Sequence record: OZ035793.1
From: Veterinaerplatzvirus T145P1
Direction: 5' to 3' (one strand)
Length of the DNA: 45,509 nucleotides
Shown here: positions 32,427 through 38,152 of the stretch, in pieces
Layout: every line of letters begins with the position of its first letter
How positions within the stretch are numbered: the stretch's first letter is position 1
Notes under the pieces: model-generated
The model's input: the letters and a program-made list of their open reading frames with translations, nothing else
The model's database searches: none
What the model was told of the DNA's origin: nothing
Program-made: the position numbers and the translations under genes

Positions 32427-32678
32427 ATGTTGGGTTTAGATTTTCAGCCAGAGCATTACGATTTAGTATATGGACAAAGTGGCTCTAAGTTTAGAGCGAT
32501 ACCTATTGCTGACTGGTTCCCTCCTGACTATGTTGATGTGAACGCAAAAACTAAAGAAGGTAAGTGGGTGCAGATATACTACTCACCGGCATGTGGAAAC
32601 CTTTGCATGACTGACCTTGACAAAAAATTAGCAATTAGTGCTGATGTGATCGACTACTGGTTGAAAGAAGTTGAATGA
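32427..32678 (+). CDS. hypothetical protein
   Basis: RBS aagga. Confidence 0.5.
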   Translation: MLGLDFQPEHYDLVYGQSGSKFRAIPIADWFPPDYVDVNAKTKEGKWVQIYYSPACGNLCMTDLDKKLAISADVIDYWLKEVE

Positions 32679-32760
32679 CGAGCCTAATGCTAGTAGCATC
32701 GTTACCACTGTTTAGCTTTACTATCTTATACTTTATCGTAATGAATTAAGGAACTTATAA

Positions 32761-33891
32761 ATGGCAACTGCAAAAATTACCAACGAAGAACTACGCGAAG
32801 AACTGGCAAATGGCATGACAAACAAGGCAATAGCAGAGAAATACGGAATGAACATTCGCAACGTTGAATTGCGTCGTAGTAAATTGGCGAAACAAGGTGA
32901 AGGGCATGGTCGCGATGTAAGCAACCTAATCCCTCAAGGCTATGCAGTTAAAGGCGTGTCTAGCCTAATTGGTGCTGATGGCGAGATTAAGCAACAGTGG
33001 GTTAAGTCAGATATAGACAAGGAGAAGCAAGAAGAGATGATGCTTCAGGCAATTCAGGCCCTAACTGATGAGTTGCCTCGTGAGAAACCCAAAGCCTTAA
33101 GGGTTGGTTTGTTTGAGGACACTTTAAGCCTTTACCCCGTATTCGACCTTCACATTGGCGCAATGGCTCACCATGCTGAATGTGGCGAGAACTACAGCAC
33201 TGAAATCGCTGAGCGAATCCTTAATGATTACTTTGATTACGCGGTTGCAAAAGCACCTAACTCAAAGAAGGCCGTATTGCTGATTGGTGGTGACTTCCTT
33301 CACTCTGACGGAATGGAAGCGGTAACACCAACCAGTCGTCATGTTCTTGATCAAGATAGCCGTTATCACAAACTTGTTTACGTAGCAGTGCGAGCGACAC
33401 GTCGAGCAATTAGCCGTATGCTTGATAAGCACGCCGAGGTTGAGGTTCAGATTATTCCAGGTAACCACGATCTCTCAGGTATGATTTGGCTTCGTGCTGC
33501 AATGGCAGCTTTCTATATGGATGAGCCTCGAGTTAATGTTGATGCGTCCCCCGCTGCGCTTCACGTAACGCAATTTGGGAAGACGCTGCTTGGTTACTGC
33601 CATGGGCACGAACTCAAAAAGCCTGATACCCGACTATCAGCACTGGCTCGTGACCATCGCAAAGCATTTGGTGAATCAGAGTATGTTTACACCCATTCAG
33701 GCCACTATCACCATCAAACTATTACGGAAGGAAATCTGGGTATTGATGAATCACACGGCCAGCTTGGAGCGAAAGATGCGTACAGTGCTAACGGAGGTTA
33801 TCGCTCTTACCGACAGGCTTCGGTGATAATTTATAGTCCTGAGTTTGGTGAGATTGGACGATTTACTTGCCGCCCGGAAATGTTTAGTTAA
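32761..33891 (+). CDS. calcineurin-like metallophosphoesterase with N-terminal HTH-like region
   Basis: Motifs FDLH, GGDFLHSD, GNHD, GHE, HSGHYHH; N-terminal TNKAIAEKYGMNIRNVELRR resembles a DNA-binding HTH. Confidence 0.7.
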   Translation: MATAKITNEELREELANGMTNKAIAEKYGMNIRNVELRRSKLAKQGEGHGRDVSNLIPQGYAVKGVSSLIGADGEIKQQWVKSDIDKEKQEEMMLQAIQALTDELPREKPKALRVGLFEDTLSLYPVFDLHIGAMAHHAECGENYSTEIAERILNDYFDYAVAKAPNSKKAVLLIGGDFLHSDGMEAVTPTSRHVLDQDSRYHKLVYVAVRATRRAISRMLDKHAEVEVQIIPGNHDLSGMIWLRAAMAAFYMDEPRVNVDASPAALHVTQFGKTLLGYCHGHELKKPDTRLSALARDHRKAFGESEYVYTHSGHYHHQTITEGNLGIDESHGQLGAKDAYSANGGYRSYRQASVIIYSPEFGEIGRFTCRPEMFS

Positions 33892-34204: not shown

Positions 34205-34283
34205 ATGCTTCTTTTCCGAGCATGGCTCCTGTATCATGTTTACACTAACTTAAACATTGACAAATAAATAAATGGAGGATCAC

Positions 34284-34499
34284 ATGAGGGAAGTAATCAA
34301 CGCCGCTACGGCGTCAACTGGAGGGGCAGCGGTAACTGGAGCGGCAACTGGTCAGATGACTATAGCAATAATCAGCCTTATCGCTTTAATCATTTTTGGT
34401 GCGTGGGGTGCTTACTGGAAGTTTAAGGATAGCCAGGCGATTCGGCGCGCTCTTGAATCAGGAGACTTAAAAACAGCAATCAAGATAAGGAGTAAGTAA
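34284..34499 (+). CDS. holin (single-TMD, pinholin-like)
   Basis: Start at second Met of MEDHM dual-start motif behind RBS ggagga; one hydrophobic helix and charged C-terminus; directly upstream of SAR endolysin. Confidence 0.6.
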   Translation: MREVINAATASTGGAAVTGAATGQMTIAIISLIALIIFGAWGAYWKFKDSQAIRRALESGDLKTAIKIRSK

Positions 34500-34985
34500 A
34501 TGAAGCAGAAGCTGCTAATTAGCGCGGCTACGGCTGCGGCAATATACATCGCAGCGCCGCTTATTGAGCTCGTTGAGGGTGTGGAGAACAAGCCTTACAT
34601 GGACATTGCCGGAATCCCTACAGTTTGTTCTGGTATTACTGGTCCTGACGTTGTTTGGGGTAAGACTTACAGCAATAGTGAGTGCCGGAACCTGCTGGAG
34701 AAGCACATCCAGATTCATGGTAAGTATGTTCAGGATGCAGTTACCTACCCAATTGCACCACAGACAAGAGCTGCATTAATCAGCTTTAGCTATAACGTTG
34801 GCGGCAATGCAATGAGGAAGTCTACCGCTGTAAGGCTAATCAACCAGGGTAAAGTTGAGAAGGGTTGCAACGCTCTCGGGATGTGGAACAAAGCAAGAGT
34901 TAACGGAAAGCTGAAGGTAGTTAAAGGCTTGGTGAATCGCAGGAATGAGGAGATTAAGTTATGTTTAAGTGGATTGCAGCGTTAG
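34500..34985 (+). CDS. SAR endolysin (lysozyme-like muramidase)
   Basis: Gly/Ala-rich N-terminal signal-anchor-release segment followed by E-x8-D-x5-T catalytic spacing (ELVEGVENKPYMDIAGIPT). Confidence 0.8.
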   Translation: MKQKLLISAATAAAIYIAAPLIELVEGVENKPYMDIAGIPTVCSGITGPDVVWGKTYSNSECRNLLEKHIQIHGKYVQDAVTYPIAPQTRAALISFSYNVGGNAMRKSTAVRLINQGKVEKGCNALGMWNKARVNGKLKVVKGLVNRRNEEIKLCLSGLQR

Positions 34986-35350
34986 TAGTGTGCGTAGCTT
35001 TATCTGGATGTTCGGCAACTGATGCACTGACTGGATTGATTGGAAGCAAGCCGGAAGTTACAGCTCAGGCCGGGGCTGAGAACAACAAGGTTGGCGTTGG
35101 GTTAACGAATAAGGTCGATTCCAGCAGCTCCAGTGAAGCCACGGTTAAAGATTCTAAAGTTGGGTCACTTGATAGCTCAAGCGGGAAAAAGACTGCTGAC
35201 AACTCGATTAAGGCATCTACAATCACTGCCGAAAAGATTGAGATTACCAACAACGACTCATCCGCGCCTCCATGGATTGTAATGGGAGCTATGGGGTTGC
35301 TGTTTTTTGTTCCACTTACCGCAATCTTAAGACGCAAAAAAGCCTCCTAA
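34961..35350 (+). CDS. unimolecular spanin (u-spanin, T1 gp11-like architecture)
   Basis: N-terminal lipobox LSGC, Ser-rich periplasmic segment and C-terminal TMD followed by RRKK; overlaps endolysin 3' end. Confidence 0.7.
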   Translation: MFKWIAALVVCVALSGCSATDALTGLIGSKPEVTAQAGAENNKVGVGLTNKVDSSSSSEATVKDSKVGSLDSSSGKKTADNSIKASTITAEKIEITNNDSSAPPWIVMGAMGLLFFVPLTAILRRKKAS

Positions 35351-35366
35351 TGGAGGCTATATTTTT
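35336..35366. terminator. bidirectional intrinsic terminator after lysis cassette
   Basis: A5-AGCCTCC-taat-GGAGGCT-ATATTTTT; contains the spanin stop codon. Confidence 0.65.
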
Positions 35367-35700
35367 AGCTAAATAACTCGTCGTCAGTCATTGTTCCTAT
35401 ATTCATCATCTCTTTTATGTACTTGCTTTGATACCCGTTAAGCGCCTCGAAGTTAAACTCAAATGGCCTCTTCAAGCTACCATTGCTAGCAAACTCACCG
35501 CACTTACCATCAATGTATCCCATGCTAAGCATCTTCGCGCAGAACTCCTTTGAAGCCGCGCTGCAAAACTCCCTATGCGATAATCCTGCCGCCTTACTGA
35601 ATCTCTGAGAGTCCTTATGCTGGTAGATGAATCGCGCCAAATGCTGTCGCGTGAAAAAGCTGTAAGATTCGCAGAACCGGTACAAGTCAAGGATGAACAT
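35365..35700 (-). CDS. hypothetical protein
   Basis: Last gene of - strand operon, followed by bidirectional terminator. Confidence 0.5.
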   Translation of the reverse strand: MFILDLYRFCESYSFFTRQHLARFIYQHKDSQRFSKAAGLSHREFCSAASKEFCAKMLSMGYIDGKCGEFASNGSLKRPFEFNFEALNGYQSKYIKEMMNIGTMTDDELFS

Positions 35701-35702
35701 AA

Positions 35703-35789
35703 TTAACTCCTGAGCACTGCCAAAACAAATAGAAGCATCGAAATTGTTACAACAAAACCAAGTATTATCAGTAGTATCGATTCAATCAT
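35703..35789 (-). CDS. tiny hydrophobic peptide (28 aa, MIESILLIILGFVVTISMLLFVLAVLRS)
   Basis: Not in ORF track; RBS gggg, start 3 nt after ATPase stop, stop abuts next start. Confidence 0.35.
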   Translation of the reverse strand: MIESILLIILGFVVTISMLLFVLAVLRS

Positions 35790-35792
35790 AAA

Positions 35793-37376
35793 TCACCCCA
35801 GCAATCTCGGATTAATGTAAACTTTATCACCAATCAGGCACGTATAGTTTTTCTCATCAAGCATTGGCAGTAAGTGATCTTTAATCTTCGTCATCACTCC
35901 AGCCTGAGCCTCGAACGGCTTAACCTTTCGCGCCGCTTCATACAATGAGCGAATGCCAACAACACCCTTACCGTTTTTACCCTGCTTGATCAGGATATCA
36001 ATCAGCTTATTCATCTCGGCATTGTCGCCAGCGTGACCAGCCGCGTTGGCAGATGACAAATAAGTCTTGCTAAGCTCCTGGAACATGATTACAGCTTCTT
36101 GCATGGTATCAAGCTCAATCTCTCTGGATTTCTGTGGACTCCCACCGCTAGGGTTGAACCAGTTGCGCACTGTGTGAAGAACAGCAGCAATCCTGATAGC
36201 CTGCTTATCGAATTTACCCAGCGCGCCGCGCAACATTGTGTGGGAATACTTACCGCCGTCCGCAAGGTGCGGCTCCATTTCCTGACGTGCCCGGTTTAGA
36301 TATTTCATCGCTGAGTTGCTAACCGTCAACTTTACTTCTTGCTCATTCATGATTTCGTGAACCAGGCGGAAGTAGTTAGCCTTAAGCTCACCATCAATTG
36401 GCTCGTAAGTTGAGTTGCCATTCTCATCGACGAATACACGCTCGCCAAGGAATGATTTTTCACGCACAAGTAGAAAACGTTCCGACACACCAATACCACG
36501 AGCACCAGCATTCATGATTGCGTTTATTGTCTCATCTTGCGCAATTACAGAGATGCATCCCATAGCGACGAAGCTCATGTTGTTTTCTGCGTTCGCACGC
36601 GCAATGGACACGTTACCAGCATCCCACGCCTTGAGTACGAGCTCGCTGTTCGTTTTCTTTGAGCCATCACCATAGGTCATACCTAGCAGAGAGTTCACGC
36701 TCGTTGCTTCATCAGAGATAACCGCGAAGTTGCCCTGGCGGTTGTTTATTCGCGCAAGACCTTCAGGCGTCGTATCTGATACTGGAAATACGATATCGCA
36801 CATCTTTTCCAGCTTCTCCTCTAAATCCTCTTTCTCCTCAAAGAGAGACGCCATCTCTGATGGTGACTTTTCCTGCTTCATCTCTTTGGATAATGCAGAC
36901 AGCTTTGCCATAATCTTTTTACGCTCACGCTTTCGCACTTCATTAAGCCGCTCAGTCTCAGCAATCATTGGCGCAATAGAAAGCGAGTTAATTGCTGATT
37001 TACCTGTGGATGGTGGCTGACTGGTTACTACGTATAGAGAGGTCGGTTGCTGGGTTCCGTGATACTCTACTGTAAAACGTCCCAGCATGGCGGCAGAAAT
37101 ACACCCCAGAAAGTGCATATAAGCTGAAGACTCTGGAAATTGAACAGAACGGGCAATATTGGCTGACAGCTTACCAACAACATCAATGTCATTACCGAGT
37201 GAGATTACGGGATACTTGTCATTAGCCGCATCAATCTCAACTGGCGCTTTCCAGAATGATTGAGACTGACGATATCCATTGGCATTAATAGCGACGCGCA
37301 GGGGTGGGAGGTTGTCTGCGGCAGCAATTGCCATAACCTGTTCAACAGATAGCTTATCTTCGTTGAAATCAAACAT
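35793..37376 (-). CDS. P-loop NTPase of unknown role (possibly replication-associated)
   Basis: Walker A QPPSTGKS and Walker B-like FAVISDEA; own promoter element 37407-37450. Confidence 0.5.
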   Translation of the reverse strand: MFDFNEDKLSVEQVMAIAAADNLPPLRVAINANGYRQSQSFWKAPVEIDAANDKYPVISLGNDIDVVGKLSANIARSVQFPESSAYMHFLGCISAAMLGRFTVEYHGTQQPTSLYVVTSQPPSTGKSAINSLSIAPMIAETERLNEVRKRERKKIMAKLSALSKEMKQEKSPSEMASLFEEKEDLEEKLEKMCDIVFPVSDTTPEGLARINNRQGNFAVISDEATSVNSLLGMTYGDGSKKTNSELVLKAWDAGNVSIARANAENNMSFVAMGCISVIAQDETINAIMNAGARGIGVSERFLLVREKSFLGERVFVDENGNSTYEPIDGELKANYFRLVHEIMNEQEVKLTVSNSAMKYLNRARQEMEPHLADGGKYSHTMLRGALGKFDKQAIRIAAVLHTVRNWFNPSGGSPQKSREIELDTMQEAVIMFQELSKTYLSSANAAGHAGDNAEMNKLIDILIKQGKNGKGVVGIRSLYEAARKVKPFEAQAGVMTKIKDHLLPMLDEKNYTCLIGDKVYINPRLLG

Positions 37377-37406
37377 TACTTCTCTCCGTGTTGTTTCTGA
37401 GCGGCC

Positions 37407-37450
37407 ATTATAACAACGACCGCTTATAAAGCATTATCAATTTGTGCTAT
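37407..37450 (-). promoter_or_regulatory. composite promoter element (- strand, ATPase gene)
   Basis: - strand ATAGCACAAATTGATAA, 22 bp, TATAAT with -10 inside hairpin AGCGG...CCGCT. Confidence 0.5.
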
Positions 37451-37566
37451 TAATTGTTCTTAATCCACTTTAGACACATCCACAATCCAGCCCCATAGAA
37501 TGCAATCTTGAGAACTTCAGCTAAGACAAGGATAATAAAGTATCCACCACCAAGTAAATCAATCAT
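37450..37566 (-). CDS. small membrane peptide (38 aa)
   Basis: Not in ORF track; ATGA overlap with upstream stop; hydrophobic core; stop abuts the promoter palindrome. Confidence 0.35.
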   Translation of the reverse strand: MIDLLGGGYFIILVLAEVLKIAFYGAGLWMCLKWIKNN

Positions 37567-37802
37567 TTTTTAATCTCCATTTCCACAATTTCATAACTTA
37601 TGTAATTATTTATCATTCCAATAAGTGATTTTGGGTATGTCTTCATATGCTTCTTGGCGGAATCTTCATCAAGATGTGCTGATATGTTGTGAAAATTGTA
37701 TTCATAATCCATGCCAATTAGTATGTATATCTTATCGTGAGCATTAATGAAGTTATTTGATTTTATTTCCCCAAGCGACCAGCCCTTTCCTTTTCTAATC
37801 AT
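37563..37802 (-). CDS. hypothetical protein
   Basis: ORF-track ORF; overlaps upstream gene. Confidence 0.5.
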   Translation of the reverse strand: MIRKGKGWSLGEIKSNNFINAHDKIYILIGMDYEYNFHNISAHLDEDSAKKHMKTYPKSLIGMINNYISYEIVEMEIKK

Positions 37803-38152
37803 TTGTATTGAGCCTCAAATCTGTAGTCGCCGCAGATTGTAATAAATCCAACCTCATCATCCCTTAAAAGCTGCCAAGCATTACCCTCTTTATCGTAAAT
37901 GCATCCAGCGCGCTGCCCAAGTCCAGCATGGAGATCTACTTGATATCGCTTACCTTCAGTAAAGTATTTTCGAATAGATGAGCGATGATTGACCTTTGTG
38001 CAATAAATTGTCTTTGTCTTAATATACTTTCCGCGCTCTTCCAGGTTAATCCATTTGCCATCTTTCTTGATTTGCTCTACACCATCTTTTACTCGGGCTT
38101 TGTAGAGTACGTTTTCGTTGCTGATCCAGTTTTTAGTAATCGTAGTAGTCAT
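37799..38152 (-). CDS. hypothetical protein
   Basis: Own promoter element 38187-38235 with CATCGAAACGA leader. Confidence 0.55.
   Translation of the reverse strand: MTTTITKNWISNENVLYKARVKDGVEQIKKDGKWINLEERGKYIKTKTIYCTKVNHRSSIRKYFTEGKRYQVDLHAGLGQRAGCIYDKEGNAWQLLRDDEVGFITICGDYRFEAQYK

Follow-up and report, generated by a model that had tools for sequence, protein, structure and literature searches.

Two very short open reading frames (ORFs), of 28 and 38 codons, flank a gene of the DUF3987 family in the leftward (minus-strand) operon of an Rtp-like coliphage of the Drexlerviridae. The DNA is sequence record OZ035793.1 of Veterinaerplatzvirus T145P1, a stretch of 45,509 nucleotides (nt) to which we refer, at its full length, as the window. 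Over the region that holds the two ORFs (35300-37900), identity is 100% to Veterinaerplatzvirus T145P1 and 87-93% to Rtp, OzMSK/Msk, SU57, 2725-N35 and further Rtp-like Drexlerviridae, with Rtp, OzMSK and SU57 at 87-90%. In the order of transcription, a gp07-like gene is followed by an ORF of 79 amino acids (aa), the 38-aa ORF, a 73-nt spacer, the DUF3987 gene, the 28-aa ORF, a gp10-like gene and a terminator. The product of the DUF3987 gene, first described as a P-loop ATPase, matches DUF3987 (PF13148) with 144.7 bits against a gathering cut-off of 27 (E 5.6e-42) and also matches phrog_2373 'DNA helicase'; we call this gene the ATPase gene. It is the conserved core between two variable slots, and the ORFs on its two sides are probably separate, unrelated and dispensable genes, each for a hydrophobic micro-protein of one helix, that have entered two insertion hot spots. 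Both are placed for coupled translation within the operon.

Coding evidence for the 38-aa and 28-aa ORFs

An open frame of such length is not in itself unusual: a six-frame scan of the window yields 26 small ORFs with a transmembrane (TM)-like segment, and four of these, both mini-ORFs among them, lie outside ORFs of at least 70 aa. The significance of the two ORFs comes instead from comparative data. An earlier note on this DNA had named a lack of conservation in relatives, along with a lack of ribosome occupancy, as what would refute it, and we find that the frames are kept in every relative that carries the sequence.

The coding reading is strongly supported for the 38-aa ORF, which we take to be a real gene. 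Its start overlaps the stop of the 79-aa ORF (ATGA), with a GGAG 8 nt upstream, and 73 nt separate its end from the ATG of the ATPase gene. Homologues with 92-95% aa identity are found in BEK6, SU57, OzMSK/Msk and two metagenome contigs, and more distant ones in Rtp (47%) and A110b (45%). When 1.84 billion representative proteins were searched exhaustively, only three clusters came back, every one exactly 38 aa long, down to 53% identity. Length is constant at 38 codons among the alleles compared, and in each of them the five other frames are closed by stops. The gene is annotated as a hypothetical protein in SU57 (SU57_00073), BEK6 (QGH76902) and OzMSK (XLM52782, in which a changed stop codon gives a product of 52 aa), and is unannotated in Rtp.

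Purifying selection on the 38-aa protein is clear. Among close alleles the ratio of nonsynonymous to synonymous substitution rates (dN/dS) is 0.06-0.3 and substitutions collect at third positions (for example [2,0,9], [2,0,7] and [0,0,5] differences by codon position); the variable columns fall as [4,1,11] by codon position (p=0.007). Eight residues, M1, E17, Y24, G27, W29, W34, I35 and N38, are invariant in the eight distinct sequences. The Rtp and A110b alleles have only 44-49% nt identity over codons 2-27, and E17, K/R20, A22, Y24, A26 and G27 are nevertheless kept. In the C-terminal 11 codons of these two alleles, the differences are mainly at third positions ([1,1,5]), and thus conservation of the C-terminus acts on the protein and is not merely a recombination tract. 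The ORF of the window shows all features of this 'WMCLKWI' family: it has 38 codons, the residues E17..K/R20..Y24..G27.W29..W34-I35 and a position directly upstream of the DUF3987 promoter spacer. In the AlphaFold prediction, residues 3-37 form one helix (predicted local distance difference test score, pLDDT, 85), and T145P1-type alleles contain a TM-like window with a Kyte-Doolittle hydropathy (KD) of about 2.0-2.3 over 17-19 residues.

For the 28-aa ORF, a probable gene, the coding reading is moderately supported. Leu, Ile, Val, Phe and Met make up 21 of the 28 residues of its product, and the mean KD is 3.1 over 19-21 residues. The ATG lies 3 nt past the TGA of the 527-aa ATPase gene and behind GGGGTGA (CTGGGGTGA-TTT-ATG), and the TAA is 2 nt ahead of the gp10-like ATG; the coordinates that the earlier note had given for both ORFs hold, as do the composition and the ribosome binding site that it had described for this one, 3 nt past the ATPase stop. 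In most relatives the sequence reads ...CTGGGGTGA-NNN-ATG/GTG-TTC... and the gp10-like gene itself starts 2-4 nt past the ATPase stop. The 28-aa ATG thus uses the start position and the Shine-Dalgarno sequence (SD) that serve the gp10-like gene in these relatives, and for this reason we consider translation of the 28-aa ORF very likely. The gp10-like gene has a new SD in the carriers, a GGAG 6-7 nt before its ATG in all four 28-aa alleles; since this SD is embedded in the end of the 28-aa ORF, it accounts for the conserved C-terminal W/R-S.

The 28-aa stretch is certainly a discrete cassette. Compared with the junction that lacks it, ctggggtgaNNN(ATG/GTG)TTC, the junction that carries it reads ctggggtgaNNNATG(A/C)TTGA, and the insert of 86-89 nt, a 27-28-codon ORF plus two bases, sits exactly at the boundary of the ATPase and gp10-like genes. 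Seven phages carry the insert: T145P1, JulesPiccard, 2725-N35, IME253, ZL19, vB_Ec-G8 and OzMSK/Msk. The four alleles have 71-75% nt identity, compared to the 87-93% of their flanks, and so the family is diverging fast, yet it is held open and extremely hydrophobic. Frame 0 is the sole frame open in all four alleles, and the single indel is of one codon and in frame. Pairwise differences avoid codon position 2 (for example [12,2,15]), and the variable columns fall as [18,7,21] by codon position (p=0.03). In 19-21 of the 27-28 codons the second base is T (binomial p 6e-4 to 1e-2), and the order of residues is kept beyond what composition accounts for (p<0.01). In a neutral simulation, in which one allele was mutated to the observed divergence with the region's own T-rich composition, the frame remained open and at least as hydrophobic in only 0.2-2.4% of trials per pair.

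Several observations weigh against the view that both ORFs are functional membrane micro-protein genes. The case is built from sequence comparison and predicted structure, and searches of families, structures and literature point to neither a partner nor an activity for the peptides. Synonymous divergence (dS) among the 28-aa alleles is saturated; dN/dS is 0.2-0.8 in most pairs and exceeds 1 in two, JulesPiccard versus 2725-N35 (1.12) and IME253 versus OzMSK (2.95), and the alleles are few and phylogenetically non-independent. The family is also rare, with carriers in about 7 of 104 related GenBank records, 1 of 39 IMG/VR loci (the IME253 genome) and 0 of 26 metagenome loci. For the 38-aa family, the Rtp and A110b versions are only moderately hydrophobic (KD 1.3-1.6 in their best 19-residue windows; 1.1-1.6 for Rtp-type alleles), so that membrane insertion across the whole family is likely, not certain. 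The conserved residues cluster on one helix face only marginally (P=0.058), and we do not count this as firm evidence.

Searches for further carriers and for known relatives were negative. The metagenome scan that used the ATPase found no further 28-aa carriers, and a scan of IMG/VR for the junction DNA pattern gave 37 matches, all due to chance except IME253. Neither peptide matches Pfam (E≤0.1), PHROGs (E≤0.1), NCBIfam (E≤10) or PDB sequences (E≤10), and a literature search found no study on these ORFs. No host origin is visible, since neither ORF had a blastn match in 5,426 E. coli genomes. We also asked if the 89-nt insert is a duplicate of neighbouring sequence; its similarity to the 5′ end of the gp10-like gene or the 3′ end of the ATPase gene is not significant (z<2.3), phiEB49 excepted.

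Slots, operon and promoter cassette

By the comparison of collinear genomes, both sides of the ATPase gene are hot spots of insertion. Downstream of the gene, Sd1 (L011) has a 30-aa TM ORF unrelated to the 28-aa family, phiEB49 (L014) has two stacked ORFs (35 and 29 aa) with a 23-nt duplicate of the ATPase 3′ end between them (z=10), and SU57 has an HNH endonuclease gene (L003 1881-2396). The phiEB49 duplicate bears the signature of a recombination event there. In the upstream slot, T1 has the HNH endonuclease gp08 (L119 5586-6125) and other relatives have unrelated small genes; in the many relatives where this slot is empty, the end of the gp07-like gene is at the same -74 position. On this evidence both mini-ORFs are dispensable and are gained, lost and exchanged like cassettes.

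Two further observations concern these slots. The second TM ORF family (29-35 aa; MRKIESFVMYSLIPIHLISILFCILSLIYG, MKNLKNFIVHSLIPFLFFTFVLVMTLIYG) follows the DUF3987 stop immediately, occurs as one ORF in Sd1 and the Opt-79/Phleasolo group and as a tandem in phiEB49, and has no coding sequence listed under the matches; its homology to the 28-aa family was considered and rejected, as the similarity is not significant against composition-matched shuffles (p 0.03-0.9). HNH homing endonuclease genes are also present in the upstream regions of L029 and L040, and a mini-ORF that occupies a junction might guard against homing.

If the peptides were a pair, or subunits of the ATPase, we would expect them to be inherited together and to vary with it. 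Instead, among ATPases that are 97-99% identical in protein, all four combinations are seen (both ORFs, the 38-aa only, the 28-aa only, neither), and JulesPiccard has a 96%-identical 28-aa ORF next to an 88%-identical ATPase gene. Because all four combinations occur and the alleles do not track ATPase similarity, we conclude that the two peptides are neither a pair nor ATPase subunits; the co-occurrence and co-variation with the DUF3987 gene that mark an obligate accessory subunit were not seen. The finding therefore leaves the understanding of the ATPase as it was.

The 79-aa ORF is often, not always, inherited with the 38-aa gene. An obligate two-gene cassette is ruled out by two contigs: in L112 the 79-aa gene is absent and the 38-aa gene directly follows the gp07-like gene, again with an ATGA overlap, and in L113 the 79-aa ORF is truncated at its N-terminus and the 38-aa gene is intact. 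The 79-aa ORF has no match in Pfam, PHROG or NCBIfam. Table 1 gives the positions of these genes and of the other features.

Table 1. Features of the window around the two mini-ORFs and elsewhere
Feature	Position	Strand	Remark
gp07-like gene, 117 aa	37799-38152	-	
79-aa ORF, rtp68-like	37563..37802	-	stop overlaps 38-aa start (ATGA)
38-aa gene, product MIDLLGGGYFIILVLAEVLKIAFYGAGLWMCLKWIKNN	37450..37566	-	one long hydrophobic/amphipathic helix
Promoter-cassette spacer, 73 nt	37377..37449	-	
Hairpin of 11 bp in the spacer	37400-37424	-	encloses extended -10
-10 of ATPase promoter	37407-37412	-	
DUF3987 protein, 527 aa	35793..37376	-	T1 gp09-like; annotated 'helicase/ATPase'; Walker-A-like PPSTGKS
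Junction GGGG-TGA-TTT	35790..35799	-	ATPase stop and SD of 28-aa ORF
28-aa mini-ORF, product MIESILLIILGFVVTISMLLFVLAVLRS	35703..35789	-	single very hydrophobic helix; coding part of optional 89-nt cassette
SD (AGGAG) of gp10-like gene	35707..35711	-	inside last codons (R-S) of 28-aa ORF
gp10-like gene, 111 aa, phrog_2794	35365..35700	-	final gene of leftward operon
Bidirectional intrinsic terminator	35341..35358	both	shared with convergent lysis cassette
T1-type holin, endolysin, spanin cassette	34272-35350	+	PF27028 in relative L113
Third hydrophobic ORF, 24 aa, product MTSLMLVASLPLFSFTILYFIVMN	32675..32749	+	ATGA overlap with gp17-like stop; ends 11 nt before gp16-like exonuclease gene
Further promoter-cassette copies	2117, 22881, 26708, 30742, 40934, 41231, 42241, 42768, 43278, 44145	+	
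Further promoter-cassette copies	38233, 39668	-	

The earlier note had also placed the 38-aa ORF ahead of an ATPase promoter, and this position is borne out by an extended -10, read directly from the sequence, in the 73-nt spacer and by the promoter that the SU57 authors annotate at the homologous place. The spacer holds TAGCACAAATTGATAA, then the hairpin that encloses the extended -10 TGTTATAAT, and then the SD GGAG. A consensus promoter scan did not flag this extended -10, as there is no -35 at 16-18 nt. The stem of the hairpin, AGCGGTCG...GGCCGCT, has a compensatory double change in 2725-N35 and OzMSK (GAGG...CCTC), and it may be a regulatory stem.

The spacer is one of 13 places listed in the window at which a common cassette motif is found, AAATAGCACnAATTGCTAAA followed, about 22 nt further on, by TGnTATAGT/TATAAT; the stretch between them often folds into a hairpin around the -10. 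With about 22 nt between the TTGCTA-like hexamer and the -10, the spacing exceeds that of a standard sigma-70 -35/-10 pair, and the upstream box may thus bind something else.

The third hydrophobic ORF, at a distance from the ATPase gene, has counterparts of 23-24 codons in Rtp, Msk, Rao1, Phagiculus (Rogunavirinae) and T1 (MKLYFAVVLTPLISFSVMYFIIM); its T1-like carriers span three subfamilies. None of the annotated records inspected, those of the T1 and Rtp references included, lists the ORF as a gene, and the region is conserved in 90 phage records, more widely than either the 28-aa or the 38-aa ORF. Around this position (32600..32790, near 32.7 kb) the best GenBank match drops to 96% (AugustePiccard), versus the 100% of T145P1 over 35300-37900; judged from the best matches at these two places, the window seems to be a mosaic. 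The third mini-TM ORF and the repeated promoter cassette are the most useful by-products of this analysis.

Alternative explanations and a possible mechanism

The sole serious rival concerns the 28-aa ORF, which could be translated and functionless, a young filler or scar, or an ORF that arose de novo from T-rich DNA and is tolerated because ribosomes flow on to the gp10-like gene. We consider this possible and rather unlikely. It would account for the rare and patchy distribution, for a divergence that outpaces that of the flanks, for dN/dS of at least 0.7 in some pairs and for the absence of homologues outside the slot and in the E. coli genomes searched. The DNA is also 42-49% T, and T-rich sequence encodes Leu, Ile, Phe and Val; non-genic DNA rich in T is known to give rise to TM-like ORFs (PMC7005711). 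However, if composition alone were responsible, the neutral simulation should have kept an equally hydrophobic open frame far more often than it did, and neither the sparing of codon position 2 nor an only indel that stays in frame would be expected. An unrelated mini-TM family occupies the same slot in other lineages, with two members stacked in phiEB49, and the gp10-like gene has its own SD, so that coupling alone needs no open frame.

It is less probable still that the peptides damage membranes in the manner of toxins or holins (compare Ibs, ShoB and TisB), and depolarise the inner membrane to serve in host shut-off, in a block to DNA entry by superinfecting phage or in the timing of lysis. 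Their size and hydrophobicity are like those of type I toxins, about 350 nt separate the 28-aa ORF from the lysis cassette, and dispensability fits a role in exclusion or timing. Against this, there is no sequence match to toxin or holin families, a T1-type holin, endolysin and spanin are already encoded on the phage's other strand, and the ORFs are co-transcribed with replication-type genes. Moreover, the invariant specific residues of the 38-aa protein suit the binding of a partner over bulk membrane damage.

We give hardly any weight to the suggestion, made in the earlier note, that the peptides target the adjacent ATPase to the membrane, as its cofactors or tethers. Adjacency and coupled translation with the ATPase gene are all that speak for it; no functional link is seen, as the peptides assort independently of nearly identical ATPases and do not track ATPase similarity, HNH endonucleases take the same slots in T1 and SU57, and the ATPase has a promoter cassette of its own, upstream of which the 38-aa gene closes the preceding transcription unit.

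Just as little credence attaches to the caution of the earlier note that one or both stretches may be non-coding, a regulatory RNA or plain spacer: both ORFs are under the length cut-offs of gene callers and the 28-aa ORF is unannotated in 5 of 5 annotated carrier records inspected, but substitutions are codon-periodic, one frame is open in all alleles, starts and stops are exactly placed relative to neighbouring genes and their SDs, an Rfam search of both regions found no RNA family, and folding gave no excess structure in either (z 0.09 and -1.3). Nor does the 28-aa ORF resemble a leader peptide or the upstream ORF of an attenuator, as the fold of 35695-35800 has z=0.09 and the gp10-like gene has its own SD.

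If, as we favour, both ORFs are micro-protein genes, then each peptide, once made, would insert into the inner membrane as a single helix. The 38-aa protein would probably have its N-terminus outward, with the invariant aromatic and basic C-terminal WMCLKWIKNN at the cytoplasmic interface. The peptides could act by helix-helix contact with a membrane protein of the host or the phage, or by perturbing the membrane mildly, and the benefit would be accessory and host-dependent, for example in excluding competitors, evading a membrane-linked defence or tuning lysis. The slots may diversify through recombination at the short conserved sequences of gene boundaries and promoter cassettes.

A broader proposal, which we regard as doubtful, is that the gene junctions of the Drexlerviridae are a nursery and an exchange point for one-helix membrane micro-proteins. 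Short T-rich cassettes would land exactly between a stop and the next start, hijack the ribosome site and be swapped or stacked by recombination at conserved sequences of boundaries or promoter cassettes, and some would be retained because they bind host inner-membrane proteins and so, for instance, exclude rival phages or blunt membrane-linked defences. Candidate examples are the 28-aa family, the Sd1/phiEB49 family, the 38-aa family and the family-wide 23-24-aa ORF between gp17 and gp16.

Phage annotation routinely misses genes this small: the 38-aa gene is annotated in some relatives only, and the 28-aa ORF in no inspected carrier. Those who design or engineer therapeutic phages of the Rtp or T1 type need to be aware that these junctions are not empty and that translation across them is coupled. 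The locus also provides a natural series (empty slot, one mini-ORF, two stacked, HNH gene) with which the function, origin and movement of one-helix peptides can be tested.

Comparison with known systems

The origin of TM-encoding ORFs de novo from thymine-rich DNA has been described in yeast by Vakirlis et al. 2020 (PMC7005711). The 28-aa ORF is similar to these in its T content, in its T at codon position 2, and in being an orphan restricted to a lineage; it differs from the yeast case in that no source sequence was found for the 89-nt phage insert.

The presence/absence polymorphism of the two ORFs in collinear genomes is like that of morons. Unlike classical morons, the cassettes have no promoter or terminator inside and rely on the signals of their neighbours. 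In T4-type phages, mobile regulatory cassettes (PeSLs) reportedly flank variable ORFs, as Arbiol et al. 2010 are said to have described. The setting here is similar in that variable genes abut a repeated cassette of promoter plus hairpin, and in that boundary sequence is duplicated between the stacked ORFs of phiEB49. In sequence the repeated cassette is unlike PeSLs, and its part in recombination would be a presumed one.

Hydrophobic peptides of fewer than 60 aa are also typical of the type I toxins (Hok, Ibs, ShoB, TisB, Ldr), and the 28-aa peptide is like them in its length and extreme hydrophobicity. Unlike the toxin genes, the ORFs have no antisense RNA gene, no Rfam small RNA and no promoter or 5′ untranslated region of their own, and they are internal to an operon with coupled starts; a promoter scan stayed at background level and found no plus-strand promoter over the 28-aa ORF. 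Holins and antiholins are expected in the lysis cassette next to the endolysin; the peptides are on the other strand, in another operon, and match no holin family.

Among proteins of known action, the peptides would be nearest in how they work to the one-helix regulators of bacteria, such as KdpF, AcrZ and MgrB. These, together with MgtS, CydX and the eukaryotic sarcolipin and phospholamban, are peptides of 20-50 aa with one helix that bind a larger membrane protein. The likeness lies in the 38-aa family, in which invariant residues (E17, Y24, G27, W29, W34) run along one predicted helix. There is no sequence similarity to these regulators, and the ORFs, unlike them, are phage-encoded and dispensable.

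Both ORFs fall into a general class that is already known, the small TM genes of phages that lack annotation, and into no named family. A large survey of small ORFs by Fremin, Bhatt & Kyrpides 2022 (Cell Rep) reportedly catalogues small (≤50 aa) phage transmembrane genes. The two ORFs are like such genes in that they are very short, have one predicted TM helix, are missed by gene callers and are confined to a narrow group of phages. The GMSC catalogue is another survey that covers genes this small (PMC11364881). What sets the two ORFs apart from the surveyed small TM genes is that their genomic mechanics are visible: the cassettes lie exactly at junctions, the ribosome site is inherited, and in the same slot HNH genes or unrelated mini-TM ORFs can take the place of the mini-ORFs.

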